Part shown: positions 919 to 17,138 of the stretch, one piece after another
Numbering within the stretch: position 1 is the first letter of the stretch
Layout: each line of letters starts with the position of its first letter
Source: Minisyncoccota bacterium
Lineage (GTDB): Bacteria > Patescibacteriota > Minisyncoccia > Phycocordibacterales > GWA1-40-21
Length of the DNA stretch: 64,000 nt
Assembly (NCBI GenBank): GCA_041659365.1
Contig: JBAZYH010000001.1
Coordinates: 37,590 to 101,589, forward strand
Direction: 5' to 3'
Notes under the pieces: model-generated
The model's input: the letters and a program-made list of their open reading frames with translations, nothing else
The model's database searches: none
Told to the model about the DNA's origin: nothing
Made by a program: the position numbers and the translations under genes

Positions 919-1841
919 TATTTTACGGCCCACGCATTTAATATTCGACCTAACGATTCTATTTCGCCAAGTGTTGCATATGTGGGCATCCCAATAAAAC
1001 AATTGTTTTTTGTAAGAACCGCAATTCCGCCAGAATTTCCAGCATCAATTTTTGCCGATGTGATAAAATAATCACCGTCAATACCGGAAATAATACCTTC
1101 TGTTGCTGTAATGTCCGTCTTAGAACCTATAGTTGGATAACCCAAAACTAATACGTCATCTCCGATTTTTGGATCACCTTTTTTACAATAATTTTGTATT
1201 TTTCGTGCAATCAAATCTGAATCTGGATTATTTGGGGTTATGACAGCATTATCATAATTTTCTGAGGACAAAACGGCCCCGGCCTCTTCGCCAACTTTGT
1301 AGACTTTATCAATATCTGGGAAAGTGATCTCGCATTTATTTGGTCTATAATTATCACTACTGACTACATGTTTATTTGTATGTACAACAGGAAACCATGG
1401 CCCATAAGAACCATCGGGGTTTACGCGTCGAAGAGATTCCACCCAACCGGAACCTGCAGACATTTCCCCCGAACTCCACGCACAAACAATATAAGCCAAA
1501 CTTTTACGCCAAAAAGAAATTATTTCACCTAAACTCAACCGATCATTTTCTATATTTATCGTACTTTCTAATTGCTGCTGTTTTTCTTTCGTTGTCGCAC
1601 TTTCTTGTTTGAGTTTCTCAATCTCTGATTTCGCTTCTTCCAAAGATTTTTGTTGTGCCTCCGCTAGCTCCCGCATCTTACTTTCTTTATCTTGTGTCGT
1701 CTTCTCTTTTTCGGCTTCTGCTATTTTGTAGTTTTGGTATTGCTCCACACCGACATATCCCACACCACCAATCACAAATATACCGACAATAATAGCAACT
1801 AAAATTGGAATTTGTATAAAACCTTTTTGTTTATTTTTCAT
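918..1841 (-). CDS. trypsin-like serine protease with N-terminal membrane anchor and coiled-coil
   Basis: N-terminal TM helix, a long coiled-coil (EKEKTTQDKESKMRELAEAQQ...), and a C-terminal chymotrypsin-fold core with active-site-like DAGNSGG. Confidence 0.55.
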   Translation of the reverse strand: MKNKQKGFIQIPILVAIIVGIFVIGGVGYVGVEQYQNYKIAEAEKEKTTQDKESKMRELAEAQQKSLEEAKSEIEKLKQESATTKEKQQQLESTINIENDRLSLGEIISFWRKSLAYIVCAWSSGEMSAGSGWVESLRRVNPDGSYGPWFPVVHTNKHVVSSDNYRPNKCEITFPDIDKVYKVGEEAGAVLSSENYDNAVITPNNPDSDLIARKIQNYCKKGDPKIGDDVLVLGYPTIGSKTDITATEGIISGIDGDYFITSAKIDAGNSGGIAVLTKNNCFIGMPTYATLGEIESLGRILNAWAVK

Positions 1842-1902
1842 AACAAAATTATATCATTTACACTTTAATAAAACAAAAAATAATGATTTCCTATTTTGTG
1901 TA

Positions 1903-2640
1903 TATCACGAGTTACTAAATTTTTTAAAATCAACTCCCAGTGGATTTTAAAAAGACGACGAAATATACAGGGAATCTTCCATTACATGGACAGTACAATA
2001 CGATTAATTAAAGGATTTCTATTTTGTGTGGTCAGGAATATTTTCTCGTCGACACTCAAAAATTTCACGACCCTAGCTCGTGATTTTGTTTGCTAACAAA
2101 ATATCACTGCGCTTTCCACAAACTAAAAAACCACTTTTTAAAATCAGCTCCCGGCAGATTTTTAAAAATACGTTACAGGGACGTGAGTACACTTATCTCC
2201 CTCGACTAAAACTTTTTCGTCAAAAAGTTTTGTCTGGGCACCGCCTCGCATTTTTATTTACTAATAAAAATTGGCTCCGGCGTTCGATCCATGACGTGAG
2301 CAAATACTTTTGCTCACTTCGGGTCCACGTGTATCACGAGTTACTAAGTATAATTTTTCGCTACGCTCAAATTCTACGTAAGTACTCGCGACCCCAGCTC
2401 AGTAATTTGCCTGCTGACAAATTATACCTGCACTTTCCACAAACTAAAAAACCGCAGCAGTGCGGTTTTTCTTAACGTTTGTGGACCCGACAGGGATATC
2501 GAAGCTTACAGCTTCAGTACCCCTATTGGCTCACTTATTCGTGATTACACTCTAAGTTTGGCTCAATAGGGCTTCGATCCCTGACGTAAGTGCTATTCAA
2601 AGCACTTACTTCGGGTCCACTCGAAAAACAAAAACCGCCT
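1903..2640. repeat. two tandem copies of a noncoding unit (about 1903-2330 and 2331-2640) containing tRNA-Ala 3'-end-like fragments and hairpins
   Basis: Shared blocks tatcacgagttactaa (1903, 2331) and ctttccacaaactaaaaaacc (2110, 2440). tRNA 3'-half-like GGCGTTCGATCC...CGGGTCCAC (2273-2327) and GGGCTTCGATCCCTGACG...CGGGTCCAC (2568-2620) each carry a perfect hairpin inserted before the acceptor strand. Inverse copy gtggacccgacagggatatcgaagc at 2481-2505. Confidence 0.55.
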
Positions 2641-2664
2641 TAAAAGCGGTTAAGTTTTTCAGAG

Positions 2665-2737
2665 TGGACCCGACAGGGATCGAACCTGCCACCCCCTCAT
2701 TGCAAATGAGGTGCTCTACCAAATGAGCTACGGGCCC
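2665..2737 (-). tRNA. tRNA-Ala (anticodon UGC)
   Basis: Reverse complement GGGCCCGTAGCTCATTTGGTAGAGCACCTCATTTGCAATGAGGGGGTGGCAGGTTCGATCCCTGTCGGGTCCA folds as a cloverleaf. It has a 7-bp acceptor stem with the G3:U70 Ala identity pair, anticodon loop TTTGCAA, and T-loop TTCGATC. CCA is not encoded. Confidence 0.85.
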
Positions 2738-2799
2738 AAAAATATTTAATTATCAACCTAATTGCAAACTCGGGTCACAGATATTTTTTTGGTAAAAAA

Positions 2800-2891
2800 T
2801 TCTTCGACCCCGACTCCTTCACCTTCGTTCAGTCCGTCTTTTCACTTGGGTCCCTAACCCAAGCTCAACTCCACCACCTGAGCTAGGGCCC
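2800..2891 (-). other. tRNA-like fragment / degenerate tRNA (5' half resembles tRNA-Ala)
   Basis: Reverse complement begins GGGCCCTAGCTCAGGTGGTGGAG (acceptor plus D-arm like), but no canonical anticodon or T-arm could be folded. Confidence 0.3.
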
Positions 2892-3073
2892 AATATTTAA
2901 CTAACAAACGAAACAAAATTACTTTTGTAACGCTTGATATATTAGCATATTAATATATTTTTTCCAAGTGATTTAGCAAAATCACAATTATATAATACTT
3001 ATAAAATTTTACTAATACAATTAGTAAGAATTTTAACGAACGACGATAATTCACAGACGTCTATAATCTACGA

Positions 3074-4063
3074 CTAATCACTATCATTCTCTATTTTCTT
3101 ACCATTTAAAGCTAGTGTAATAATATGATCTAGAAAATGAGGAAAAGCACAACCAATAGCTTCTAATGATTTGGGTAATAATGATTCTTTTGTTAGACCA
3201 GGAAGTGAATTAACTTCGAGTATATATATCCCCCTCTTGTGACTTACAATGAAATCAGACCTCGAATAATGTCTTAAACCAAGTACCCTATGGGCTTCTA
3301 CCGCCATATTTTGTATGGTCTCTTTTTCTTTTGAAGAAAAATTACCCGGACATACTTCCTCTGAACACCCAGAATATTTTTCATCATAACCCCAAAAGCC
3401 TATTTCTCTGGGCTTAAGAATCTCGATAGGTAAAAGTGGATAAATACTTTTTTCTCTAAAATTTTCTATGACACCACATGTTGCTTCCCTTCCTTGTATA
3501 AATTCCTCAACAATTAAAAAATCTGAATGTCTAAACGCCTCCTCCATGGCAGGAATTATATCTTTAACGGATTTAACAATAGTAACACCGAGAGAAGAAC
3601 CGCTACCCCCTGGCTTCACAATCGCTGGCATAGGGAATGTTTTAAAAATCTCTTGTGCTTTTTCTTCCGTATTTTCACCTTTTTTAACAACTATATAAAC
3701 AGGAGTTTTTAGTCCAGCTTTTATAAAAAAATCTTTTGCAAGTACTTTATTCATACCAATAGCAGAAGCCAGAGCTTTGGAACCAGTGTATTTTACACCA
3801 AAATGATTCATCAACTGTTGAACTTTTCCGTCTTCACCATATTCACCATGAAGAGCATTAAAAACAACATCAACATCTCGAAAAACTTTTGCAGGAGCTA
3901 CTGAAACACCATCAACATACCACCCACCATTTTTAGAAATAAAAACATCTGTGGGAATATATTTATCAGGTAAATTTTCTAAAACACTCTTCCCTGTTTT
4001 AAAAGAAACTTCTGATTCCCTGCTAGGTCCGCCACGTAAAACAGCTACTTTTATTCTTTTCAT
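3074..4063 (-). CDS. ddl: D-alanine--D-alanine ligase
   Basis: Full-length ATP-grasp Ddl pattern: KVAVLRGGPSRESEVSFKTG, ALHGEYGEDGKVQQLMNHFGVKYTGS, KPGGSGSSLGVT, EVNSLPGLT. Confidence 0.9.
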   Translation of the reverse strand: MKRIKVAVLRGGPSRESEVSFKTGKSVLENLPDKYIPTDVFISKNGGWYVDGVSVAPAKVFRDVDVVFNALHGEYGEDGKVQQLMNHFGVKYTGSKALASAIGMNKVLAKDFFIKAGLKTPVYIVVKKGENTEEKAQEIFKTFPMPAIVKPGGSGSSLGVTIVKSVKDIIPAMEEAFRHSDFLIVEEFIQGREATCGVIENFREKSIYPLLPIEILKPREIGFWGYDEKYSGCSEEVCPGNFSSKEKETIQNMAVEAHRVLGLRHYSRSDFIVSHKRGIYILEVNSLPGLTKESLLPKSLEAIGCAFPHFLDHIITLALNGKKIENDSD

Positions 4064-4600: not shown

Positions 4601-5932
4601 CTATTTTGTAAAGATAGACCTTTTTTCTCTATGATATTTAATAGCAAACCTATGAGCTTCACTGTTTGCAAGTAAAATATCGTTTGAATACTTTTCTGTT
4701 ATATTTTTAGATCCCAATATTGCTTTCGGTTTATGATATTCATCTTTTAAGACAGAAACAATCTCAATTTTAGATACTTCGCTCACCAAGGTCTCTCCTT
4801 TTTGAGGATTCAAGGAAAGACCTTTCTTCATTTCATTCAAAACTTTTCTAGCAACATTTATCTGAGCTTTTCCACCATCTACCACAATAATCTGAGGGAA
4901 AGCCCATTCTAAATGTTTAAACCTTCTCTCTAAAATTTCTCTCAAAGCATCAGTATCACTCCCCTTACTATTTCTTATAATAAATTTTCTATATTCATTT
5001 TTATTTATTTCTCCGTTTTCTATTACAGTCATTACACCAACATTATTTGTACCTGAAAGATGAGCTACATCATAAGCTTCAATACGAAACAGATGCGGAC
5101 TAGACGCGGATTTTATGCTGACTTGACGCGGAAAATTAAAAACATTTTCTTCATTATATTCAATATTCGACATTCTGTATTCATCTTTTATAAGAGCTAC
5201 ATCTTGAATATGATTTAGTGCGAAAATAGTTTTTTTAATATTATTTGCTTTTTCGAATTGTTGATTCTTAGCAAAAATGTTCATCTCTTTTTCAAGATTT
5301 TTTATTATTTGTTTTTTTCTACCTTCAAAAAATAATTTTATATTTTTAATGGTTTTTTGATATTCTTTCTTTGTAACCAAACCAACACAAACACCAGGAC
5401 AAAGTCCTATTTGATAATTAAAACATGGTTTATCCTGACCAATCTTACATTTATCTCTAAAAGGGAAAATTTTCCTTACTATTTTTATAGCTTCTTTAAG
5501 CTGACTTCCGTTTGTGTATGGTCCAAATTTTTCTTTAATCGAGTATTCTAATTTTTCAATATTTTCTAAATTTCTTCCACGTTCAACTAAAACTCTAGGA
5601 TAGTCCTCTTTTGTAATAACAACATAATTAAAACTCTTATTATCTTTTTCTTTTGTATTATATTTTGGTTGATGTTTTTTTATAAGCTCAGCTTCTAAAA
5701 TAATTGCCTCGAGAACTGAGTCTGTTTCTATATAATCAATTTTATCTGCAAGAAAAACCATATCCACAATAAGAGGACTTCTCATGGCTATCAAATCACT
5801 AGAAAAATAACTTTTTACTCTATCTTTAAGAGATGTAGCTTTTCCAATATACAAAATCCCTTTTCCTTTTTTGAAAAGATAGACACCAGGATTTTCTGGT
5901 AAAATATTATTTTTTATATATTGACTATTCAT
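4601..5932 (-). CDS. uvrC: excinuclease ABC subunit C (UvrC), short form lacking C-terminal HhH domain
   Basis: GIY-YIG N-terminus (PGVYLFKKGKGILYIGKATSLKDRVKSYF), UVR-like motif (FEKANNIKKTIFAL), and RNaseH-like endonuclease domain (RIEAYDVAHLSGT...IIVVDGGKAQI). 443 aa against about 600 typical. Confidence 0.85.
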   Translation of the reverse strand: MNSQYIKNNILPENPGVYLFKKGKGILYIGKATSLKDRVKSYFSSDLIAMRSPLIVDMVFLADKIDYIETDSVLEAIILEAELIKKHQPKYNTKEKDNKSFNYVVITKEDYPRVLVERGRNLENIEKLEYSIKEKFGPYTNGSQLKEAIKIVRKIFPFRDKCKIGQDKPCFNYQIGLCPGVCVGLVTKKEYQKTIKNIKLFFEGRKKQIIKNLEKEMNIFAKNQQFEKANNIKKTIFALNHIQDVALIKDEYRMSNIEYNEENVFNFPRQVSIKSASSPHLFRIEAYDVAHLSGTNNVGVMTVIENGEINKNEYRKFIIRNSKGSDTDALREILERRFKHLEWAFPQIIVVDGGKAQINVARKVLNEMKKGLSLNPQKGETLVSEVSKIEIVSVLKDEYHKPKAILGSKNITEKYSNDILLANSEAHRFAIKYHREKRSIFTK

Positions 5933-6262: not shown

Positions 6263-6376
6263 ACCCTCTACCCCGCGTACACAACGCGGGGTAAGTTTTT
6301 ATTTCTTTATCATTTTTTCATAGCCCAGTAACACAACTCTGTTGCAGGATGAAGTCAGTCACAAGACAGGTTTACC

Positions 6377-7975
6377 TTACTTTTGTTTCTTATTTAATAC
6401 TCTCTTTAAGTATTTTCCTGTGAAGCTCTTCCCATTCATCGCAATATCTTCAGGAGTACCTTTTGCTATAATTTGTCCACCTTTATCTCCACCTTCTGGA
6501 CCAATATCTATAACATAATCAGCAGATTTTATGAGATCCATATTGTGTTCAATAACCATTACTGTATTTCCATTGTCTACAAGCTTTTGTAAAATCTCTA
6601 TAAGTTTTTTTACATCTTCATAATGAAGACCGATAGTTGGTTCGTCCAAGAAATAAATCGTCTTATACATTCCTGGTCTGTAAAGTTCTGAGGAAATTTT
6701 TACTCTTTGTGCCTCTCCACCCGAAAGGGTTGTTGCAGACTGTCCAAGCTTCAAATATCCAAGACCAACGTCATTTAGACATTTTATTCTATCGTAAACA
6801 TTGGGTATATCTAAAAAGAAATCCTGCGCCTCTTCTACAGTCATATCAAGTACTTGATGAACATTTTTTCCTTTATATTTTACTTCCAAAGTTTCTTTCA
6901 TAAATCTTTTTCCATTACAAATATCACAAGGTACATAAACCGTAGGAAGAAAATGCATTTCAACTTCTATGTTTCCATTACCTTCACAAGTTTCGCAACG
7001 CCCACCTTTTACGTTAAAAGAAAATCTATTTGCCTTCCATCCCCTTTCACGAGCCATCACAGTTGAAGCAAAAAGCTCACGAATAAATGTCCAACATCCA
7101 GTATATGTCGCCGGGTTTGAACGAGGAGTTCTACCTATTGGAGACTGATCTATCATTACAGTTCTGCTTATATATTCTGAACCAGTAAATGACGCGCAGT
7201 TATGAGTCTCCGTTGATCTCATTTTTCTCTCAAGTCTTGCCTGAAGATTTTTATATAATATTTCATATATAAAAGAAGATTTTCCAGAACCAGAAACTCC
7301 AGTGACACAAACAAGTTTACCTAGAGGAACATCAATATCCATATTTTTAATATTAAATATCTTTCCCCCTCTTATTTTTAATTTTCCTTTATCTTGATCC
7401 CTTCTTTTTTCTGGAATCTCTATTCTATCTTCTCCACGCAAATAACTAAGAGTAAGTGATCCACTTTCATTTTTCTTTGCTGTTAAAAGTTCGTCGAGAT
7501 ATCCAGTGACGACAACTTCTCCACCATGGACCCCAGCACCAGGACCAATATCTACGATAAAATCGGAAGCATACATGGTATCTTCGTCATGTTCCACAAC
7601 AATAATAGTATTACCTAAATCTCTAAGATCTGTAAGCGTTTTTATGAGTTTGTCATTATCTCTCTGGTGTAGTCCTATGGTTGGTTCATCGAGCACATAA
7701 AGCGCACCTACGAGCCCAGAGCCGAGCTGGGAGGCAAGACGGATCCTTTGAGCCTCTCCTCCAGAAAGTGTGTTTGCTCTTCTATTTAATGATAAATATT
7801 CTATACCAACATTGGTCATAAACAAAAGTCTAGAATCTATCTCTTTCAAAATAACATTCGATATTTCTTTTTCTGTTTCAGTAAGTTTTACTTCATTAAT
7901 AAAAGTTTTTGCATCTGTAATAGATTTTGCAACGTAGTCTACAATATTTAGACCATTTATAAGTATATGAAGTGC
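6377..7975 (-). CDS. uvrA: excinuclease ABC subunit A (UvrA), C-terminal segment, in frame with the upstream segment
   Basis: The same frame continues straight after the TAA: ALHILINGLNIVDYVAKSITDAKTFINEVKLTETEKEISNVILKEIDSRLLFMTNVGIEYLSL, then LSGGEAQRIRLASQLGSGLVG, the second ABC domain and LSGGEAQRVKI. The first Met of the track ORF is at 7849. Confidence 0.85.
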   Translation of the reverse strand, partial: ALHILINGLNIVDYVAKSITDAKTFINEVKLTETEKEISNVILKEIDSRLLFMTNVGIEYLSLNRRANTLSGGEAQRIRLASQLGSGLVGALYVLDEPTIGLHQRDNDKLIKTLTDLRDLGNTIIVVEHDEDTMYASDFIVDIGPGAGVHGGEVVVTGYLDELLTAKKNESGSLTLSYLRGEDRIEIPEKRRDQDKGKLKIRGGKIFNIKNMDIDVPLGKLVCVTGVSGSGKSSFIYEILYKNLQARLERKMRSTETHNCASFTGSEYISRTVMIDQSPIGRTPRSNPATYTGCWTFIRELFASTVMARERGWKANRFSFNVKGGRCETCEGNGNIEVEMHFLPTVYVPCDICNGKRFMKETLEVKYKGKNVHQVLDMTVEEAQDFFLDIPNVYDRIKCLNDVGLGYLKLGQSATTLSGGEAQRVKISSELYRPGMYKTIYFLDEPTIGLHYEDVKKLIEILQKLVDNGNTVMVIEHNMDLIKSADYVIDIGPEGGDKGGQIIAKGTPEDIAMNGKSFTGKYLKRVLNKKQK

Positions 7976-8986
7976 TTATTCTCTAAGTCTCGCACCCTTA
8001 CACTTTTCACAATCTTCATCAGAGAAAAAATCTTTTGTTCCAAGACCATTACACTCACTACATGCTCCATAGGGTGAGTTAAAAGAAAAAAGTCTAGGCT
8101 CTATCTCAGGATAAGAATATCCATCATAAGGGCACATGAATTTTACAGAAATCATTTTCTCTTCTTCAGGAGTTTCTATCTTAAGTAAACCTTTTGACTC
8201 ATCTATAGCTTTTTCTACAGCATCAGATAAACGCTCCTTAATAGCATCTTTTTTATCCTTAAACTCACTTATATAAAATTCATCGACAAGAACGTCTATG
8301 TCGTGTTTTTTATTTTTTGAAAGAATTATTTGATCCCTAAGCTTTTTAAGTTGACCATCTATTTTTACTGATTCATATCCTTTTTCAAGTAAATCATAAA
8401 GAAGCTGATAATATTCTCCTTTTCTTCCCACAACTACAGGTGAAAAAATTTTTATTTTATCACTTACAACTTCTACTCCAAGAATTTCCCTAGAATTCTT
8501 TGGTGCTTTAATTGCATAAACTGTATGAAAAATTGTTTCTAAGATTTCTTCCTTTGAAAGCTTCTTTATTTCTCTTCCACAAACCAAACAATGTGGTCTA
8601 CCAATTCTTGCAAAAAGAATTCTAAGATAATCATAAATTTCTGTAATAGTAGCTACTGTGGAACGAGGGTTATTTGAACGAGATTTTTGATCTATAGAAA
8701 TAGCTGGTGAAAGACCAATGATTTCATCCACATCCGGCTTCTGCATCTGATGTAAGAATTGTCTTGCATATGAAGAAAGTGACTCTATATATCTACGCTG
8801 GCCTTCCGCAAAAATAGTATCAAAAGCAAAAGATGACTTCCCTGAACCGGAAAGGCCTGTAACTGCTATCATCTTATTTCGAGGCATCTCAACTGTGATA
8901 TTCTTAAGATTATGAGTTCTAGCACCCCTTACAATAATCTTGTCAGAATTATGATTTACATCTGTTTTTGTTTTTTTTGTATTCAT
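7976..8986 (-). CDS. uvrA: excinuclease ABC subunit A (UvrA), N-terminal segment ending at an in-frame TAA
   Basis: UvrA N-terminus with Walker A ([25 protein letters not shown]) and zinc-finger region ([32 protein letters not shown]). Stop TAA at 7976-7978. Confidence 0.85.
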
Positions 8987-9703: not shown

Positions 9704-10084
9704 CTATCCCAAAACTTTCTCTGCAGCTTCAACTATTTCATCAAGAGAAAGTATAGCTTTAACCAGAAACATTCTTGCACCGAGTCTGGTCCCTCTCTCC
9801 ACATCAGATTTCTGTCCAAGATTCGAAAGAATAATGACTGGGGTGCCTTTTGATCTCTCATCTAAATTAAGATTCTCCATAACCTCAAAACCATTTACTT
9901 TGGGTAAAAGTAAATCAAGCAAAACTAAATCATACCTATTTAACTTAATCATAGAAATAGCGTCCTCACCATTTGAAGCCCGCCCGATGAGGGCCTTCTC
10001 ATCTATAAATTTCTTTGCAAGCATTTCGCTTAGAAGATTATCATCTTCAACTATCAATATTTTTTTACCATCAAATTTTGCCAT
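9704..10084 (-). CDS. response regulator, stand-alone receiver (CheY-like) domain
   Basis: KILIVEDD...phospho-acceptor D in LVLLDLLLP...conserved T/K region (VIILSNLG...K). 126 aa with no output domain. Confidence 0.85.
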   Translation of the reverse strand: MAKFDGKKILIVEDDNLLSEMLAKKFIDEKALIGRASNGEDAISMIKLNRYDLVLLDLLLPKVNGFEVMENLNLDERSKGTPVIILSNLGQKSDVERGTRLGARMFLVKAILSLDEIVEAAEKVLG

Positions 10085-10098
10085 TTTATTTTTAAAAA

Positions 10099-10809
10099 TT
10101 ATTCAAGTAGTAACAATATTGTAACCGTTGTCCCTTCATTTAGAGTTGAATCTATTTTAATACTACCACCATTCATTTCAAGTATTTTTCTTGTAGTATA
10201 AAGACCAATTCCACTTTTTCCAGGTTTCATTTCTATAGTATTTTCACCCTTAATAAATCCATCAAAAATATTTTTTAATCTTTCTGGGGAAATACCGACA
10301 CCTGTATCTTTTACAATTAGTCTTAAACTACTACTAATTTTATCAACAGAGATAATAACCTTACCGTTTGGCGAATATCTAAGTGCGTTGTCTACAACGT
10401 TTATAATAGCAAGTTCTATCGTCTCCATATCAGCAAAGGCGGTGGCCTCAGTACATCTATTATACTCAACTATATTATTTTTTTCTTGAACTAAATATTT
10501 TAAATTTTTTAAGACATTATCTATCAATAAACATAGATTAAATCTCTCTTTTTTAAAATCAAGCTTTTTACTGTCTTTAAAAAGATTTAATACTTCCTCT
10601 GTAATATTTATAGACTCCAAAACTTTATTATAAGACTCTTTTACTAATTGAATATCTCCGTCCTTTTTTTCTGAAATAATTGACTCAAGTAGCCACCTTG
10701 CACCATTTAATGGAGTACGAAGTCTATGAACAAGAGCCATAATTAATGTTTTATCAAAACTACACATCCTTAGATCTTCTTCCTTTTCCTTTCTCTTAAA
10801 AAAATTCAT
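10099..10809 (-). CDS. sensor histidine kinase (soluble; HisKA + HATPase_c)
   Basis: H-box LVHRLRTPLNGARW, N-box NVVDNALRYS, G-boxes KDTGVGISPERL and GKSGIGLY. Overlaps or abuts the receiver gene, so a two-component operon. Confidence 0.8.
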   Translation of the reverse strand: MNFFKRKEKEEDLRMCSFDKTLIMALVHRLRTPLNGARWLLESIISEKKDGDIQLVKESYNKVLESINITEEVLNLFKDSKKLDFKKERFNLCLLIDNVLKNLKYLVQEKNNIVEYNRCTEATAFADMETIELAIINVVDNALRYSPNGKVIISVDKISSSLRLIVKDTGVGISPERLKNIFDGFIKGENTIEMKPGKSGIGLYTTRKILEMNGGSIKIDSTLNEGTTVTILLLLE

Positions 10810-10860
10810 AAGATGATTATATCACAAGGAACAAAATATTGAACTATAAAAAATACACTA

Positions 10861-10982
10861 AACCTGGATTGCTTCGCTTCGCTCGCAAAGACACAAATTA
10901 TTAATAATGAAAAAACAGATTTCATTTTGTGAAATCTGTTTTTATTATATGTCTTTGCGAGCGAAGCGAAGCAATCCAGGTT
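10861..10982. repeat. composite palindromic element: 33-bp inverted arms (aacctggattgcttcgcttcgctcgcaaagaca) flanking a terminator-like hairpin
   Basis: Arms at 10861-10893 and 10950-10982 are perfect reverse complements. Core: aaaaaacagatttcattttgtgaaatctgttttt. The same architecture recurs at 24442-24553. Confidence 0.6.
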
Positions 10983-10999
10983 GATTTTATTAAAATTTT

Positions 11000-13063
11000 T
11001 TATTTCTTCCTTTTAATAGTTTTGACCTTTGGAGTCATTACCTTTATTTTTTCTTTCAACAATAAAATTTCGTCTCGAAGAATAGAAGCGGACTCGAAAT
11101 CTAATATTTTTACAGCGGCATTCATCTGTATTTCTTTCTGTCGAATAAGCTTTTCTGGATTTTTAACAGAGGATACCTCATCTATTCTCAAAAGCTCCTG
11201 CACGGCTTTATCATGATCACTTCTCAAATGTTCAGTAATATCTTTTATAGCCTTAATTATAGTCCTTGGAGTTATGCCATTTTTTTTATTATAGGCTATC
11301 TGTATATCTCTTCTTCTATTTGTTTCTTCTAAAGCTCTTTCTATAGAACCTGTGATTCTATCTGCATAAAGAACAACCCGTCCAGCTACGTTTCTGGCTG
11401 CACGTCCTATTGTCTGTATAAGTGAGGTATCCGAACGCAAAAATCCTTCTTTATCAGCATCAAGTATTCCTATAAACTCTACTTCTGGAAGATCAAGACC
11501 CTCTCTGAGCAAGTTTACTCCTACAAGACAGTCAAACTTCCCTCTTCTAAAACTTGTAAGAATTTCTATTCTGTCTATAGTTTTTATTTCACTATGTAAA
11601 TATTCTGCTTTAACACCTTTTTCTTTTAAATATTCACTAAGATCTTCTGCCATCTTTTTAGTAAGTGTTGTAGCAATAACTCTTCCGCCTCCTTTTATAA
11701 CTTTTAATGATTCATCTATAAAATCAAAAACTTGAGATTTATTTTTATTCTTCACTTCAGTAATCGGCCTTATTTCTACAACAGGATCAATAAGTCCAGT
11801 AGGCCTAATAACCTGCTCAACTATTTGTTCAGAATTTTCTCTCTCGTAATCTCCTGGAGTTGCTGAAGTAAAAATAACTTGATTTATTCTCTCCTCAAAT
11901 TCATCAAACTTTAGTGGTCTATTGTCCTTTGCAGATGGAAGCCTAAAACCATAATCTATAAGAGTTTTCTTTCTTGAAGCATCTCCCGCATACATACCAC
12001 GAATCTGAGAGACAGCTACGTGTGATTCATCTATAACAGTAAGAAAATCTGGAGTACCATCTTCTTTTTTAGGAAAATATTCAAGCAGACTGTCTGGAGC
12101 TTCTCCTGGATTTTTACCAGAAAAATGTCTGGAATAATTTTCTATACCATTACAATAACCAACCTCTTTTATTAAAGCGAGATCATAAGTAGTTCTCCTT
12201 CGAAGTCTTTCTGCTTCAAGATTTTTACCTTCCTTTTTCAAATCTTCGAGTTGTTTTTCCAACTCCGCTTTTATACTTTTGAAGGCTCTTTCTTGTTGTT
12301 CCTTATCTGTAATAAAATGTTTTGCAGGAAAGATAAAAATCGATTGTATATTATCTTCAACAATATTTCTTGAAACAGAATCTATTCTGGTAATAGCTGA
12401 GACTTCGTCATTCTCAATATCTATCCTTATAATAATCTTTTCGTTTACTGGCATTACTTCAATAGAATTACTTACTGCTCTAAATGTTCCAGATTTGATA
12501 TCAGAATTTGTTCTTTCAAAGTAAACACTTATAAGCTTCCTTACTAAATCTTGTCTTGAATAACTATCTCCTATTTTTAGTTTAAGATTAACTTTTTCAT
12601 ATTCCTTTGGACTTCCTAAACCATATATACAAGAAACTGATGCGACAATTATCACATCTTTCCTTGTAAGAAGTGCCTGAGTAGAAGCATGACGAAGTCG
12701 ATCAATTTCCTCATTTATCATTGCCTCTTTTTCTATATAAGTATCTGTAACAGGCATATAAGCCTCTGGCTGATAATAGTCATAATAAGAGACAAAATAA
12801 TGTACAGCATTATCAGGGAAGAATTCTTTATATTCTTGAGCAAGCTGAGCCGCAAGGGTTTTATTGTGAGCTATTACAAGAGTTGGTTTCTGTATTTGCT
12901 GGATAACATTTGCAACTGTAAAAGTTTTTCCAGAGCCAGTAACACCAAAAAGGGTTTGTTTTTTAAACCCCTTTTTAATCCCTTCAACTAGCTGTTCAAT
13001 TGCATTTGGCTGGTCACCAGCGGGAGCATAATCAGCTCGAATTTTAAACTTATTTTGTGACAT
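11000..13063 (-). CDS. uvrB: excinuclease ABC subunit B (UvrB)
   Basis: ADYAPAGDQPNAIEQLVEGI, Walker A GVTGSGKTFTVANVI, helicase motifs, C-terminal UVR domain. The track ORF starts at 13084, but the likely start is the Met at 13063 (MSQNKFKIRADY), because the upstream codons fall inside the repeat element. Confidence 0.9.
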   Translation of the reverse strand: MSQNKFKIRADYAPAGDQPNAIEQLVEGIKKGFKKQTLFGVTGSGKTFTVANVIQQIQKPTLVIAHNKTLAAQLAQEYKEFFPDNAVHYFVSYYDYYQPEAYMPVTDTYIEKEAMINEEIDRLRHASTQALLTRKDVIIVASVSCIYGLGSPKEYEKVNLKLKIGDSYSRQDLVRKLISVYFERTNSDIKSGTFRAVSNSIEVMPVNEKIIIRIDIENDEVSAITRIDSVSRNIVEDNIQSIFIFPAKHFITDKEQQERAFKSIKAELEKQLEDLKKEGKNLEAERLRRRTTYDLALIKEVGYCNGIENYSRHFSGKNPGEAPDSLLEYFPKKEDGTPDFLTVIDESHVAVSQIRGMYAGDASRKKTLIDYGFRLPSAKDNRPLKFDEFEERINQVIFTSATPGDYERENSEQIVEQVIRPTGLIDPVVEIRPITEVKNKNKSQVFDFIDESLKVIKGGGRVIATTLTKKMAEDLSEYLKEKGVKAEYLHSEIKTIDRIEILTSFRRGKFDCLVGVNLLREGLDLPEVEFIGILDADKEGFLRSDTSLIQTIGRAARNVAGRVVLYADRITGSIERALEETNRRRDIQIAYNKKNGITPRTIIKAIKDITEHLRSDHDKAVQELLRIDEVSSVKNPEKLIRQKEIQMNAAVKILDFESASILRDEILLLKEKIKVMTPKVKTIKRKK

Positions 13064-13078
13064 AATTTTGTTTTTGTG

Positions 13079-13154
13079 TGTCATTCCCGTGAAGACGGTA
13101 ATCCATGAATATTATATTTCTGTCATTGCGAGGTAGTCCGTCGCAATCCAGGTT
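13079..13154. repeat. two short palindromic repeat elements (TGTCATT-hairpin-AATCC family)
   Basis: tgtcattcccgtgaagacggtaatccatg (13079-13107) and tgtcattgcgaggtagtccgtcgcaatccaggtt (13121-13154). Confidence 0.6.
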
Positions 13155-13289
13155 ATATTAACTGATTCTATATTACCCTTGAATGAATAATAATAACATT
13201 TGACAATCAAACAATGATTATGCTACATTTTAAAAGGAAAGACAAGTGTTTTTTTTAAAAAAAAACACAAAGAAAAAGGATAGTACGTT

Positions 13290-13592
13290 ATGGAACTGTC
13301 AAAAGAAAGAATGGGTAAGATTGCAATATTAATGCTCAAGAAAATCTATGAGAGACACCAGAGTAAAATGGGTATTCTCGGCCACATCAATGCCGTGGAG
13401 TTCGTGGAAGATATTTCAGCTGATTGTGCCGACCTTCCCAAGGAAGACGACATCAAGCTCGAAGAATACTTCGCTGTAATGAGTAAGATTCTTCCGAAAG
13501 AAAGTCAGGGAACATACGATGAGGCAGTGAAAAATTTCCTGGAGAAAAAATTAGTTGCTACAAAGTCACCCGAACCCGAATCGAAAAGCTGA
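13290..13592 (+). CDS. hypothetical small acidic protein; GC-rich (about 42%) relative to genome
   Basis: RBS aaaaaggat; clear codon periodicity; followed by GC-rich terminator aaaaccgcgtgcacgacacacgcggttttctt (13655-13690). Confidence 0.5.
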   Translation: MELSKERMGKIAILMLKKIYERHQSKMGILGHINAVEFVEDISADCADLPKEDDIKLEEYFAVMSKILPKESQGTYDEAVKNFLEKKLVATKSPEPESKS

Positions 13593-13654
13593 TCTTTTTT
13601 ACAGCATTTTGACAAAGGTTTTCAAGGACGGAACAATCATCCCTACTTGAAAAT

Positions 13655-13690
13655 CAAAAACCGCGTGCACGACACACGCGGTTTTCTTAT
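13655..13690 (+). terminator. intrinsic terminator (copy 1 of an identical pair)
   Basis: ccgcgtg-cacgaca-cacgcgg stem-loop plus T-run. An identical 36-bp sequence sits at 14204-14239. Confidence 0.6.
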
Positions 13691-13795
13691 TTTTTAAAAA
13701 TTGAGTTCAAACTAAAATTGACTTAATCTGACTTATTATGTAGTCTTTTAACTAGGAAATCAAGTTCTCAAACAAAACGAGTAAAAGGAGCCAGT

Positions 13796-14182
13796 ATGAA
13801 AAGGTTTTTAGTCCGATCATCGAAAGAGAACCAGTTTTGGACTTTTTTGATCAAAAAAAGCCGTAACGGAAAAATGGGGTTATGGTTTGTGATGGTGTAT
13901 GTTAAGAGTCTCAACTTTATTACCCTTTCCCCCGTCTGGAGAAAGATTGAAAATAATGGGTTACCAAAAAATATTGGTACCCATGGCCGTTTCATTCTTG
14001 GTGGAGACATCAAGCTACTTGGTGGTGACGATGCTGGATCAAATGAAAAAGAATACATCTCACAAACAACACAAAGTGGCTCTGTTAAACACACACTTCC
14101 TTGTGACGGTTTTGGCAGAGAAAAAATATTTCGCACTCTTCTCTTACTTTCAAAAGAAAGCTCTGGAGAACAGGTTGTCTAA
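13796..14182 (+). CDS. hypothetical protein; moderately GC-rich
   Basis: Consensus RBS aaaaggagcc, 5 nt, then ATG; followed by the second copy of the identical terminator (14204-14239). Overlapping alternative-frame ORFs (13899-14462 +, 13768-14136 -) are judged spurious. Confidence 0.4.
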   Translation: MKRFLVRSSKENQFWTFLIKKSRNGKMGLWFVMVYVKSLNFITLSPVWRKIENNGLPKNIGTHGRFILGGDIKLLGGDDAGSNEKEYISQTTQSGSVKHTLPCDGFGREKIFRTLLLLSKESSGEQVV

Positions 14183-14257
14183 GGCCCAAAACCTTAGGTT
14201 AATCAAAAACCGCGTGCACGACACACGCGGTTTTCTTCTGTCACTTAAGCGACAAAA

Positions 14258-14725
14258 TCAGTCGAATCGTTTACAATTTCTACCTACAAACCAAGGTTTT
14301 TTCTCTAAATATTCAATAATAAACTCCCCTTTTCTTTTGTGGACATTATACCTTGCCTTAAAAGTTAACCATCCACAAATATCAACATTTCCCTTTTTAA
14401 TTACGTCAACCGGTAATTTAAAAAGAGAACAAAGAGTCAGTCTTGATTCTTTATCAAAATAACCAGATAAAAAATAATCACTATAATTATATTCTATATT
14501 TTCAATACCTGTAATTACAACAGATATAGCAATTGCAGTTGTACTTTTTTCCCATCCTTTTATTGGTTGTAAGAGAATTTTAAAAATTACAGGAAAACCA
14601 AAAGGCGAATTTCCCCCACTACTACCTAATGATGGTAAAGTAATTGAAAGCGAAGTTAAAACACTATGAAGTGAAGGTCCATCATCGATACTTGTAGTTA
14701 CCAGTTCTCTTTTTTCGGTAGTCAT
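14258..14725 (-). CDS. hypothetical protein
   Basis: Good RBS (aaaaaggagagtcgtATG); 155 aa; no family recognised. Confidence 0.45.
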   Translation of the reverse strand: MTTEKRELVTTSIDDGPSLHSVLTSLSITLPSLGSSGGNSPFGFPVIFKILLQPIKGWEKSTTAIAISVVITGIENIEYNYSDYFLSGYFDKESRLTLCSLFKLPVDVIKKGNVDICGWLTFKARYNVHKRKGEFIIEYLEKKPWFVGRNCKRFD

Positions 14726-14885
14726 ACGACTCTCCTTTTTGAATGAACAAGCGTATTAGTTGATGAATACACGATACATCCTTATTTCCAGTTTTACCTA
14801 GAAACGACCCAACCATACAGTCAGGAATTAATTCATTTTTATATTATATATAATATGTAGTAATGTCAATTTTTAGGATTATAAA

Positions 14886-14921
14886 TTTTACACATATACG
14901 CCATGGCGTATATGTGTAAAA
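14886..14921. repeat. perfect palindrome TTTTACACATATACGCCATGGCGTATATGTGTAAAA (copy 1 of 3)
   Basis: Perfect inverted repeat centred on CCATGG, flanked by T- and A-runs. It lies downstream of the tgt stop, so it is probably a bidirectional terminator. Confidence 0.6.
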
Positions 14922-14940
14922 TTAATTTATTAAAATACTT

Positions 14941-15066
14941 AACCTGGATTGCGACGTCAGAATACTTCCTCGCAATGACAGAAGGGGAATTTTGCGAAGC
15001 AAAATTCCCCTCTCTCCTATTTATTTTCTTTTTGTCATTGCGAGTTACTACGTCGCAATCCAGGTT
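14941..15066. repeat. two short palindromic repeat elements in opposite orientation, plus a central hairpin
   Basis: aacctggattgcgacgtcagaatacttcctcgcaatgaca (14941-14980); ggggaattttgcgaagcaaaattcccc hairpin (14984-15010); tgtcattgcgagttactacgtcgcaatccaggtt (15043-15066). Confidence 0.55.
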
Positions 15067-15076
15067 AATTTTTATT

Positions 15077-16378
15077 TTATTTAAGATATTTACTTAAAAA
15101 TTCTTTTCTAAATTTATCAAAATTATTATCTAGTATACTCTGACGGATTTTTTTAACTAGATTAACAATAAAATAGATATTATGTATTGAAGCTAGTGTT
15201 CCACCAAGCATTTCTTTACCATGGAAAAGATGACACAAATAAGCTCTAGAATAATTCTTACATGTATAACACGCGCAATCATCTTCAACGGGTTTTATAT
15301 CTATTCTAAACTCGTTATTCATTATATGAATCTTCCCTGTCTTAGTGTAAATAGTTCCGTTTCTTCCAAGCCTTGTTGGTAATACACAATCAAAAAGATC
15401 TATACCATTTTCGATTCCCATAAATAAATCTTCTGGTTCACCAATACCCAAAAGGTGTCTTGGTTTTTCTTCTGGAAGTATCTCATTTACCCATTTTACA
15501 GCAGTAGACATATCTTCTTTAGCGAAAGAACCACCTATTCCAAAACCATCAAACTTTTCTCCATCTATCTCCATTTCTGAAATTACTTTTGCAGATTTCT
15601 TTCTTAAATTTTCATCTCTACCACCTTGGATAATTCCGAATAATGCTGGGCCAAAAAAATCCTGGATTCCCGCCTCCGCGAGAATGACAGATTCGGTTTT
15701 TGTTTCTTTCAACTTTTCACTTTGAACTTTTAACTTGAGATGTTCTTCCAGACAGCGCTTTGCCCAAGAATGAGTCCTCTCAAGTGCCTCCTCTTGATAC
15801 TTCAAATCTTCGGATGGTGAAGTACACTCATCAAAAGCAAATATCATATCTGCACCTAAGTTATGTTGTATCTGTATAGATCTCTCAGGAGTAATATAGT
15901 GAACAGAACCATCTATATGAGATGTAAAAGAAACTCCATCCTGTCCTATCTTTGCCAGCCTTGGAGCATTTGAATCATCAAATCTTTCAGGAATCAAAAG
16001 AGATGGATTAGTTATTTGTATAACTTTTGATATTTCTTTTCCATAAGCAGCACCAAGAGAAAAAACTTGAAAACCACCAGAATCAGTCATACTCGGTCCG
16101 TGCCAGTTCATCATTTTATTTAAACCACCCATTTTCTTCACAGATTCATCTCCAGGCTGAAGATATAAGTGATATGTATTTGCAAGGACTACTTGAGCTC
16201 CAGTATCTCTCACCTGCTCAGGATTGACCGATTTTACTGTCCCCTTAGTCCCAACCACCACAAAAGCAGGGGTTTCTATTATCCCGTGAGCTGTTTCTAT
16301 AGTTCCTGCTCTTCCAAGCTTTCCTTCAAGCTTTTTTTCTATTTTAAAATTAATAGCTTTCACTTGGTTAATATACAT
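15077..16378 (-). CDS. tgt: queuine tRNA-ribosyltransferase
   Basis: GRAGTIETAHGIIETPAFVVVGTKG, VLANTYHLYLQPG, zinc site CACYTCKNYSRAYLCHL. The track ORF runs to 16477, but that extension overlaps a repeat element, so the Met at 16376-16378 (MYINQVKAINF) is the likely start. Confidence 0.85.
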   Translation of the reverse strand: MYINQVKAINFKIEKKLEGKLGRAGTIETAHGIIETPAFVVVGTKGTVKSVNPEQVRDTGAQVVLANTYHLYLQPGDESVKKMGGLNKMMNWHGPSMTDSGGFQVFSLGAAYGKEISKVIQITNPSLLIPERFDDSNAPRLAKIGQDGVSFTSHIDGSVHYITPERSIQIQHNLGADMIFAFDECTSPSEDLKYQEEALERTHSWAKRCLEEHLKLKVQSEKLKETKTESVILAEAGIQDFFGPALFGIIQGGRDENLRKKSAKVISEMEIDGEKFDGFGIGGSFAKEDMSTAVKWVNEILPEEKPRHLLGIGEPEDLFMGIENGIDLFDCVLPTRLGRNGTIYTKTGKIHIMNNEFRIDIKPVEDDCACYTCKNYSRAYLCHLFHGKEMLGGTLASIHNIYFIVNLVKKIRQSILDNNFDKFRKEFLSKYLK

Positions 16379-16430
16379 GAATAAATATATTACTGCAAAG
16401 AGATAAAAAATGCATTTAAGATAGAGAGTA

Positions 16431-16551
16431 AAGCTGAGCGTTTTAAAAGCCTTACGGAAATAAATTTGTAGCAACAAATTTATTGAGTAGAGAAAAAGCC
16501 CCGCGACGGCGGGACTTTTATCGTGCTTTCAAAACGCTCTGCGAGCGAGCC
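16431..16551. repeat. about 120-bp intergenic repeat (second copy, inverted, at 42118-42246)
   Basis: The reverse complement ggctcgctcgcagagcgttttgaaagcacgata...ttctctactca...ttccgtaaggcttttaaaa...gctcagc matches 42118-42246 with a different internal hairpin. Confidence 0.5.
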
Positions 16552-16552
16552 T

Positions 16553-17014
16553 CTATTTAACTTCCAATAATTCAACCTCAAAAATCAAAGTAGAATTTCC
16601 AGGTATAGGACCGTAATCATTTGGACCATAAGCAAAATCTGGAGGTATCACGAGAAGTCTCTTTCCACCAACTTTCATACCTTCTATACCTATGTCCCAA
16701 CCTTTAATAACCATTCCTGATCCAAGTGTAAATTCAAAAGGAACACCTCTATCTCTAGAACTATCAAACTTCTTACCATCTGCAAACACACCAGTATAGT
16801 GAACCTTTACAGTTTTACCTGCTGTAGCAACATCACCAGTACCTAGAGTTAAATCTTTTTGGTCAATCTGTATAACTTGAGTATCTTCTTGTTGAGTCAT
16901 TTCATTTTTATTATTATCTGAACCTATAAAATTATTTACTAATCCCGCGCCTCCAACCATCGCGAGTATAACTATAATCGAAACAGCGACTGCAATTGAT
17001 GTTTTTTTATCCAT
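16553..17014 (-). CDS. FKBP-type peptidyl-prolyl cis-trans isomerase, membrane-anchored or secreted
   Basis: N-terminal TM/signal; FKBP core [62 protein letters not shown]. Confidence 0.8.
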
Positions 17015-17123
17015 ACTTTTTTAAACTAATAAATTAAACTAATAAATTATTGACCTATCTTATATACAAATATTATATCACACGTAAAAAATAAAAAAAC
17101 GATTACCTTTTAAAAAGATGTGA

Positions 17124-17138
17124 TATAATTTATCCATG
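17124..17138 (+). promoter_or_regulatory. extended -10 (TGaTATAAT) ending 6 nt before the LOG start codon; possible leaderless transcript
   Basis: gatgtgatataatttatccATG; no room for a Shine-Dalgarno. Confidence 0.3.

Follow-up and report, generated by a model that had tools for sequence, protein, structure and literature searches.

What do the fragments of tRNA sequence around a tRNA gene of a bacterium from the Candidate Phyla Radiation (CPR) represent? We asked this for the tRNA-Ala(UGC) locus in a chromosomal stretch of 64,000 nucleotides from Candidatus Paceibacterota (GC ∼32%), which we call the window; tRNA-Ala is its sole tRNA according to both ARAGORN and Infernal (RF00005). The initial annotation had read the surroundings of this gene as tRNA-derived debris, left by serial integration and excision at an attachment site or, alternatively, belonging to SINE-like repeats or to a split or permuted tRNA gene. 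We find that the region is an array of several types of module (U1, W, U2, W′ and a U3-like remnant) with bidirectional terminators between them. The modules belong to a family with a common architecture and strand, they are conserved and covary, and their sequence tracks that of the local tRNA. The array may well represent a previously undescribed family of tRNA-trailer RNAs of Paceibacterota and related CPR bacteria, in which a mimic of the acceptor/T minihelix of the cognate tRNA would be built around interchangeable scaffolds.

The modules behind tRNA-Ala follow one plan

The tRNA-Ala gene lies on the minus strand (2664/2665..2737) and is intact, as first annotated (ARAGORN; Infernal RF00005, 64.6 bits); it has the G3:U70 pair and its CCA end is not encoded. 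The modules behind it, roughly 75–160 nt each, share a plan. After a bidirectional terminator, a module begins with ∼10 nt complementary to the acceptor 3′ strand of the tRNA through C74 (arm g1), followed by a conserved hairpin of 8–9 bp (H1) that is placed exactly between tRNA positions 66 and 65, and by arm g2, ∼12 nt that are complementary to the 3′ strand of the T-stem and to the T-loop. Next comes one of several conserved scaffolds. A hairpin with a UGUAA loop and, last, a copy of the tRNA 3′ end in sense orientation usually complete the module.

The plan is best seen in U1 (2479..2622, minus strand), which folds with −69.7 kcal/mol (z = −9.0) and matches our covariance model with 144 bits. 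Read from 2622 to 2479, it starts with GTGGACCCGA, the antisense of the acceptor 3′ strand through C74 (g1, 2611–2620), then has an A, the hairpin G[TAAGTGCT...AGCACTTA]C (H1, 2586–2609) and GU, and continues with CAGGGATCGAA, the antisense of the T-stem 3′ strand and T-loop (g2, 2573–2583). A conserved central hairpin domain of 55 nt (2517–2572), the sequence GUACUG and the hairpin GAAGC-UGUAA-GCUUC (2501–2515) lead to the 3′ end, GAUAU-CCCUGUCGGGUCCAC, which is the sense copy (2481–2503). In the window, sense copies lie 167–183 nt beyond the tRNA 3′ end, and three related sequences have them at equivalent positions (L004, L006 and L008; sequences other than the window carry L numbers); a conserved motif directly precedes each sense copy.

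Two of the pieces reported in the initial annotation are parts of this plan. The minus-sense copy of the tRNA 3′ end is present, with 17/17 bases identical (ATCCCTGTCGGGTCCAC) and a T-loop-like extension. The two plus-sense split copies are present as well (2283–2328 and 2573–2620), each composed of TTCGATCC(A/C)TGACG, a hairpin of 8–9 bp and CTTCGGGTCCAC, but they are better described as antisense arms of minus-strand modules, so that the apparent 3′ halves interrupted by a hairpin correspond to the 5′ arms of these modules. Within the window, 10-mers of the tRNA 3′ end are confined to the tRNA-Ala locus, which also holds all four occurrences of CGGGTCCAC, each of them exact.

In the predicted fold of U1, a 10-bp acceptor-like helix, the H1 branch and a 7-bp T-stem-like helix are arranged so that the 3′ strand has no unpaired base; H1 takes the place of the D and anticodon arms and the scaffold that of the T-loop. 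The module is thus predicted to mimic the acceptor/T minihelix of its cognate tRNA. Alternatively, g1 can lengthen the terminator hairpin into the 3′ end of the real tRNA. This terminator-into-acceptor arrangement occurs in its cleanest form after the tRNA-Ser of L026 (12470–12522), where a perfect 24-bp palindrome includes the last 9–10 nt of the tRNA.

The plan recurs behind other tRNA genes and tracks the local tRNA

Do related genomes carry the same modules? In L003/L012, L004 and L006 (81–88% identity in the D-Ala-D-Ala ligase, Ddl), a tRNA-Ala gene lies at the equivalent place together with matching modules. Their tRNA-Ala differs from that of the window at positions 59, 60 and 66, and in each genome the sense and antisense copies all carry that genome's own version. 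The more distant L013 (76% Ddl identity) has the promoter and the tRNA-Ala and lacks the modules, and represents an empty site.

An exact search with a 23-mer from the U1 core located modules after tRNA-His (L008/L010) and tRNA-Trp (L011), and in L009, where the tRNA is lost at the contig end. In all of these the arms are the antisense of the local tRNA 3′ end, and H1 sits exactly at the 65/66 junction. Because the scans of genome and metagenome DNA used the exact U1 core as query, they sampled close relatives only. The plan was also present at loci obtained for other reasons, after tRNA-Ser, tRNA-Val and tRNA-Arg(GCG) of L026, a GC-richer lineage, tRNA-Leu (L008) and tRNA-Ala (L017 and L027), and, as above, after tRNA-Ala in L004 and L006. 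Altogether, 11 of the 14 assessable tRNA loci carry modules, and at least seven tRNA identities besides tRNA-Ala are involved; among the loci examined, they were absent after tRNA-Ile, tRNA-Asn and tRNA-Arg(UCU), and in L013. We trained a covariance model on six U1 units. Its 16 matches in 209 kb all lie directly 3′ of a tRNA and on its strand, with none elsewhere, and they include units outside the training set, other scaffolds and the L026 units (E = 1e-13 to 1e-5).

The modules match no family in Rfam 15: tRNA, plus RNase P in L011, are the only families that reach the threshold, and sub-threshold matches are inconsistent noise. The U1 core and a U2 motif are absent from 2.9 million viral contigs, in which a 16-mer from the end of W has chance matches inside coding regions only. 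In the literature searched, we found no specific account of tRNA-like RNAs of CPR bacteria or of serine recombinases at their tRNA genes.

Conservation, covariation and strand polarity

Next, we asked whether the modules are under constraint. Between the window and L004, the four-fold sites of ddl are 49% identical, while the modules are 88–95% and the tRNA 93% identical. In an alignment of 13 units, 93.5% of the cells are paired, compared with 71% in shuffles and 33–47% in slid controls, and compensatory changes on both sides occur at 32 of the 39 modelled pairs; as this alignment was fitted by the covariance model, the counts are biased towards the structure. An unfitted RNAalifold analysis of six sequences gave compensatory changes at 16/39 pairs. 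Loops and junction bases are conserved and stems are variable, with nine distinct stems under the UGUAA/CGUAG loop. Judged from these comparisons of sequence, conservation greatly exceeds that of neutral sites and compensatory change is extensive, so that the modules are not passive scars.

On the strand with the sense of the tRNA, there are 20 G:T and 4 A:C combinations, and an extra U:G pair occurs four times in the UGUAA hairpins, compared with no A:C. This excess points to a single-stranded functional form with the polarity of the tRNA.

Organization of the array and its genomic setting

On the minus strand the order is promoter, module A, tRNA-Ala, bidirectional terminator, U1, terminator, W, U2, terminator-like hairpin, and W′ with a degenerate U3-like unit. 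The putative σ70-like promoter (2939..2967, minus strand; TTGGAA, 17 nt, TAATAT), read from the sequence, has counterparts upstream in L003, L004 and L013; this conserved element stands directly 5′ of tRNA-Ala in the empty-site relative and 5′ of module A in the window.

Module A (2757..2891, minus strand), upstream of tRNA-Ala, contains the fragment that had been likened to a tRNA 5′ half. The likeness holds, with the start GGGCCCTAGCTCAGGTGGT at 2891 to 2873, and neither ARAGORN nor Infernal (E ≤ 10) calls a tRNA there. The module consists of a 5′ tRNA-Ala-like fragment (2869–2891), the A scaffold (..AAGACGGA-hairpin-GAGTCGGGGTCG..), an A/T hairpin, GTGACCCGAG and an anticodon-loop-like fragment, TTTGCAATTAGG (2757–2768). 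It is kept in L003/L012 (91% over 309 nt) and in L006, and A-type scaffolds are also found after tRNA-His and tRNA-Leu in L008.

The intrinsic terminator after the tRNA (2633..2651) is bidirectional, and its palindrome, with arms of 31 nt (2611–2641 and 2643–2673), reaches the tRNA 3′ end and the first antisense arm. In L004 and L006 it is a swapped cassette between ...CCAC| and |GTGG..., with 47–51% identity against >90% in the flanks. Behind U1 lies terminator b (2446..2470, also bidirectional), which is flanked by ...TCCACAAAC and GTTTGTGGA and is 95% identical to its counterparts in L004 and L006. Module W (2330..2445, minus strand; 88% identical to L004) starts with GTTTGTGGAAAG, has a covarying hairpin with the loop YCAGCAGR and the motif GAGCTGGGGTCGCGAGTAC, and ends with CTTAGTAACTCGTGATACAC; this end motif occurs twice in the window (0 expected).

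Module U2 (2171..2329, minus strand) matches the covariance model with 34 bits (E = 4.5e-8). Its g1 (2319–2328), H1 (about 2295–2317) and g2 (2283–2293) are followed by a scaffold of two covarying A/T hairpins and GCGAGGCGGTGCCCAGAC, and by a degenerate sense copy, TCCCTGTAACG (2171–2181). L004 has a full U2 homologue (6335–6491), and the positions of the U1 and U2 scaffolds are exchanged between the window and L004. An A/T-rich, palindromic, terminator-like hairpin (2134..2169) has a second copy at 1919–1954. The last part of the array (1900..2132, minus strand) comprises W′ (2060–2132) and the U3-like module, in which ATTCCTGACCAC is followed by GTACTG-TCCA-TGTAA-TGGA-AGATTCCCTGTAT at 1965–1996 (3′ module match at 1996); the terminus is TTTAGTAACTCGTGATATAC (1900–1919). 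The roughly 400-bp tandem duplication that the initial annotation saw in this region is not borne out: the repeats are spaced by 214, 290–292, 321 and 429 nt, and no repeat is called in it by Tandem Repeats Finder.

The array is embedded among ordinary genes. The ligase gene ddl lies at 3074–4063 (minus strand), and uvrA, uvrB, uvrC and a trypsin-like peptidase gene are nearby. In the 1.2 kb around tRNA-Ala (1842–3073) no credible open reading frame (ORF) was found; the 131-aa ORF at 2080–2475 is domain-free and crosses the array repeats. Elsewhere, ORFs next to module arrays are Pfam-free or belong to ordinary genes. In L006, a Pfam-free ORF of 199 aa (6860–7459) lies within the array with modules on either side, and looks like a gene cassette bracketed by tRNA-end repeats. 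A separate short-read assembly of the same organism (Logan contigs L001 and L002, SRR18595301) breaks at ∼2812 and ∼2066, within the array, which is consistent with repeats confounding assembly. Farther away, uvrA (6377–8986, minus strand) is broken by one in-frame TAA (7976–7978), which could reflect a pseudogene, a sequencing error or read-through; the UvrA proteins of relatives are intact (867–883 aa). By far the longest ORF of the window (2,259 aa) lies at 49664–56443 on the minus strand.

Serine-recombinase islands insert between tRNA genes and their modules

If the pieces were scars of integration, which element left them? No recombinase gene was found in the 64-kb window. In relatives, large-serine-recombinase islands are located exactly at the 3′ ends of tRNA-Ala, tRNA-Arg and tmRNA, and the tRNA 3′ end is indeed an integration hot spot. 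In the closest relative (L012), the gene of a 547-aa large serine recombinase lies at ...CCAC| after tRNA-Ala, convergent with it and flanked by perfect 115-nt inverted repeats. The cargo of this island (9874–17433) is defence-like (a methylase, GmrSD, SIR2 and others). Among the cargo genes of this island and of L024 (1832–8784) are those of an EcoRI-type methylase, GmrSD/HNH, SIR2 and a DUF87 ATPase; that of L024 also has a Y1 (IS200-type) transposase and an ATPase resembling type IV secretion system coupling proteins. Further islands adjoin tRNA-Ala (L024, L027), tRNA-Arg (L026) and tmRNA (L025). The recombinase (Pfam Resolvase, Recombinase and Zn_ribbon_recom) has >6,500 homologues in CPR at E ≤ 1e-30, the top matches being 60–87% identical.

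The two complete islands (L026 and L027) have the same order: the tRNA, a 116–118-nt repeat, the recombinase gene, the inverted repeat, a 140–268-nt terminal repeat, 8 kb of cargo, the inverted terminal repeat ending in CCAC, and then the terminator and the module. Strains with identical Ddl differ exactly at the ...CCAC junction: L017 is empty (tRNA-CCAC|terminator+module), L015 shows the far junction (island-CCAC|terminator+module) and L016 a third junction. Islands insert between the tRNA and its modules, exactly at the tRNA or tmRNA 3′ end.

Could these islands have produced the tRNA copies? Their crossover lies after C74, and matches of ≥8 nt to the tRNA 3′ end are no more frequent in them than expected by chance; they therefore cannot have done so. 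In addition, a BLAST comparison of the island inverted repeats and interiors with all arrays found nothing except the shared terminator, a result on which we rejected the idea that modules are remnants of island ends. As the islands carry neither a tRNA-derived segment nor any similarity to modules, the modules are chromosomal sequence, located distal to the attachment site. The integration-scar hypothesis was thus right on the site, and direct copies of the tRNA end do bound modules, but it was wrong on the nature of the pieces, which are conserved and folded. At two island-bearing loci, the module separated from its tRNA is partly degraded (first arm shortened in L027, hairpin lost at L026 tRNA-Arg), a weak hint that adjacency to the tRNA matters.

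The islands have further peculiarities. The inverted repeats around the recombinase gene, 115–118 nt long and 97–100% complementary, are located at 7929–8043 and 9513–9627 in L012, 399–515 and 1982–2098 in L025, 9823–9940 and 11412–11529 in L026, and 9829–9944 and 11411–11526 in L027. The inner copy encodes the recombinase C-terminus, and the reading frame continues into antisense tRNA. All segment boundaries read CCAC|...|GTGG, which suggests invertible or exchangeable segments. Inside the island and adjoining its attachment-site end is a hairpin-rich non-coding stretch (L012 9628–9810 and L015 5110–5300, 88% over 190 nt) of the form GGATTCGGCAGGACGAA...TTCGTCCTGCCGAA...GCGGGCGTAATCC-TTTTT, which ends in a terminator-like stem and a T-run, has no Rfam match and may be an island-encoded small RNA. 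Between the L015 island end and the first longer ORFs lie ∼570 nt (5300–5870) that are comparatively GC-rich, with long hairpins and two short genes (46 and 65 aa; no Pfam), and likewise have no Rfam match.

RNA units or products of recombination?

How would such modules work as RNAs? We suggest that they would be transcribed by read-through from the tRNA promoter, and that their tRNA-like ends may serve processing or stability via tRNA end-maturation enzymes such as RNase P and RNase Z. Conversion of short tracts among the repeats, correction of the palindrome that spans the terminator, and selection for pairing could keep them matched to the tRNA. An abundant CPR island family uses the attachment site whose chromosomal side the array occupies, and recombination at the repeated tRNA ends may shuffle, duplicate and truncate modules, which would explain why the array looks like debris.

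Several observations weigh against a function as RNA. Each module is directly preceded by a good intrinsic terminator, and a scan for promoters belonging to the modules themselves found nothing convincing (6 against 4.6 expected, not above chance), so that expression would require read-through. About half of the units (U1 of L004 and L006, L011, L026 tRNA-Ser and tRNA-Val, U2 of the window) have a sense copy whose acceptor part is truncated or degenerate; a full minihelix is impossible in these, and what is consistently kept is H1, the T-stem-like helix and the scaffold. In Ala units a Watson–Crick A:U replaces G3:U70. Since alanyl-tRNA synthetase recognizes tRNA-Ala by G3:U70, a mimic with a perfect Watson–Crick arm should not be aminoacylated. 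No role explains why the sequence of a module must equal that of the neighbouring tRNA. Homology breakpoints fall exactly at ...CCAC|, |GTGG... and the T-loop TCGA, a pattern that fits DNA recombination as well as RNA function. Finally, the case rests on 13–16 units from about 10 genomes, and on the model-fitted alignment described above. A further-reaching idea, which we put forward tentatively, is that many tRNA genes of Paceibacterota and related CPR are accompanied by a 'shadow' RNA of their own. Such RNAs would form a new class: around interchangeable functional scaffolds, they would copy and pair with the 3′ strand of the acceptor/T-arm of the cognate tRNA, co-evolve with that tRNA and act on or replace it, for instance in the processing or quality control of tRNA ends, as decoys for enzymes that target the acceptor stem or in the control of the recombinase attachment site.

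Could the modules be DNA-level cassettes instead? This is the main competing explanation: it is possible, although we would not call it probable, that they are non-autonomous miniature integrative units (cis-mobilisable or MITE-like) which a site-specific recombinase inserted and accreted at the tRNA 3′ end. The sense copies would then be attR-type direct repeats, produced by crossing over within the T-loop or at the 3′ terminus, and the inverted arms would fold a single strand into a duplex attachment site, as the single-stranded forms of the filamentous phage CTX and of integron attC do. Such cassettes would account for the variable order and content of the arrays (the swapped U1 and U2 scaffolds, the terminator exchanged exactly between CCAC| and |GTGG), for the empty site in L013 and for the presence of one scaffold type at different tRNAs. 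The locus is a proven recombinase hot spot; a conserved motif stands directly upstream of the sense copies; direct repeats of the tRNA 3′ end, from the T-loop on, bound modules like the 20-bp ssrA repeats of Dehalococcoides (PMC3146451); and element integration is known to leave partial tRNA gene fragments (PMC9897764). However, the only recombinase islands found cross over after C74, without a tRNA copy or module-like sequence, and there is no recombinase in the window or beside most module-bearing tRNAs. The match to the tRNA is closer in the antisense arms than in the sense copies, which no crossover generates. Stems vary under conserved loops and G:T exceeds A:C by 5:1 on one strand, both of which point to a functional form that is single-stranded and has a fixed polarity. 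The absence from viral contigs also argues against mobile cassettes. As for MITE- or SINE-like repeats, inverted arms and copies at many tRNA loci are present, with no fixed terminal sequence and no short target duplication. All copies in the 64-kb window lie in one locus, and the dispersal that the SINE-like alternative implied is not seen there; the family is dispersed among the tRNA loci of related genomes.

We regard it as unlikely that the array is a host-side attachment-site architecture, in which the palindrome and the extra sense copies exist because of the islands, as landing pads or decoys or as a by-product of cleavage and repair, with template switching keeping the match. The far junction is a terminal inverted repeat-CCAC|terminator+module in every complete or half-visible island (L015, L026, L027), and the U1 sense copy with its CCAC|AAAC-terminator resembles the empty site of L017. 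The nested, near-perfect inverted repeats of the islands (115–118 nt around the recombinase gene, 140–268 nt around the cargo) and the palindrome at the tRNA-Ser of L026, which takes in the acceptor 3′ strand, would also suit this explanation. On the other hand, half-sites of large serine recombinases measure 20–25 bp, and H1, located 10 bp from the boundary, splits the inverted half-site and would be expected to disrupt it. The scaffolds and conserved loops would have no role, modules also occur after island-free tRNAs (His, Leu, Trp, Val and Ser), and by-products of repair would not stay 88–95% identical.

Neutral debris of past integrations or duplications, or split, permuted or intron-containing tRNA halves, are very improbable and already largely refuted: truncated or degenerate copies (U2 of the window, the U3-like remnant), the 5′-half-like and anticodon-loop fragments upstream of tRNA-Ala and the frequency of tRNA fragments near integration sites (PMC9897764) would fit them, but conservation is well above that of four-fold sites, compensatory changes are extensive, the plan recurs at many tRNAs in distant lineages, Infernal RF00005 finds nothing tRNA-like except the tRNA-Ala gene in 1800–3100 even at E ≤ 10 and no other tRNA or tmRNA is called, the hairpin loops have 6 or 8 nt in place of the 7 nt of an anticodon loop, and the plus-strand T-stem pairing is missing from the L004 and L008 homologues on inspection of their sequences.

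Other candidates were rejected. Neither ARAGORN nor Infernal supports a split, permuted or intron-containing tRNA, as once proposed, or a permuted tmRNA, for which a 17.7-bit match to tmRNA_permuted is the sole hint. GOLLD, ROOL, YrlA, T-box and riboswitch RNAs have no Rfam match here, and the lack of the U1 core and U2 motif in viral contigs speaks against a phage or viral origin. An alternative genetic code was dismissed, as no single stop codon stands out by a gain in ORF length. The arms are not primer-binding sites, since they stop at C74 and continue into the genomic trailer, not CCA. RNA-guided recombination, with guides either in the islands or in the modules themselves, is contradicted by islands without a tRNA-matching segment and by both arms addressing one strand of one contiguous target; with regard to bridge RNAs of the IS110 type, no DEDD-type recombinase is nearby.

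Relation to known systems and significance

How do the modules compare with RNAs that imitate tRNAs? Viral tRNA-like structures, mascRNA and the tRNA-like domains of tmRNA and YrlA each have a fixed sequence of their own. The modules are predicted to resemble them in an acceptor-like helix on a T-like helix, a tRNA-type 3′ strand and non-tRNA RNA in place of the other arms, and processing by tRNA enzymes is plausible for them. They differ in that they copy whichever tRNA lies upstream and occur in arrays, and in that they lack G3:U70, an encoded CCA and a canonical 7-nt T-loop; the Rfam tRNA, tmRNA and YrlA models do not match them. Sponges from tRNA 3′ external transcribed spacers, such as 3′ETS-leuZ, are short, unstructured and not complementary to their own tRNA. 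Like 3′ETS-leuZ, the modules are encoded in a tRNA 3′ trailer and would depend on the tRNA promoter; unlike it, they are structured and complementary to their own tRNA.

At the DNA level, the closest parallel is with the Dehalococcoides ssrA islands, in which the serine recombinase DsiB (CcrB family, ∼540 aa) crosses over in the T-loop and segments accrete with ∼20-bp direct repeats of the gene 3′ end from the T-loop, and for which gene-free 'cis-mobilisable' segments were proposed (PMC3146451). Both systems have a ∼540-aa serine recombinase beside and convergent with a tRNA-like gene, tandem accretion downstream and a conserved motif just upstream of each repeat. The CPR islands, unlike those at ssrA, cross over after C74, carry no target copy and use many tRNAs, not one tmRNA, while the CPR segments are non-coding, 75–160 nt long, and combine an antisense copy with a junction hairpin and covarying scaffolds, features that are not described for ssrA islands. 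Integrative elements leave attL and attR tRNA fragments (PMC9897764, PMC4383910), and partial 3′ (and 5′) copies beside an intact gene at an integration hot spot resemble such scars. In contrast to scars, which are expected to be sense, decaying and at island ends, the best-kept parts here are antisense and split at a structurally defined point, and the whole unit is constrained and recurs genome-wide behind tRNAs. The island recombinase has the domain set of phage-type large serine recombinases and their short-site integration without target duplication; the 115–118-nt inverted repeats around its gene and the targeting of the tRNA/tmRNA 3′ terminus appear unusual for that group.

What appears new, then, is a conserved, folded unit that tracks its tRNA and is absent from Rfam 15 and from the literature searched. 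For annotation, it is a warning that such pieces are prone to be mislabelled as tRNA pseudogenes or spurious ORFs, as with the 131-aa ORF at 2080–2475. The islands are a defined CPR family with precise targeting of tRNA/tmRNA 3′ ends and an unusual design of nested inverted repeats, relevant to CPR genome plasticity through their defence-like cargo and to the discovery of recombinase tools. Because CPR genomes are minimal, hundreds of conserved non-coding bases behind many tRNAs need explaining. If the modules are functional RNAs, they would be, to our knowledge, the first RNA family whose sequence is slaved to a neighbouring tRNA gene and a natural "tRNA-scaffolded RNA" system, and would offer a handle on tRNA maturation and mimicry in the largely uncultivated CPR.

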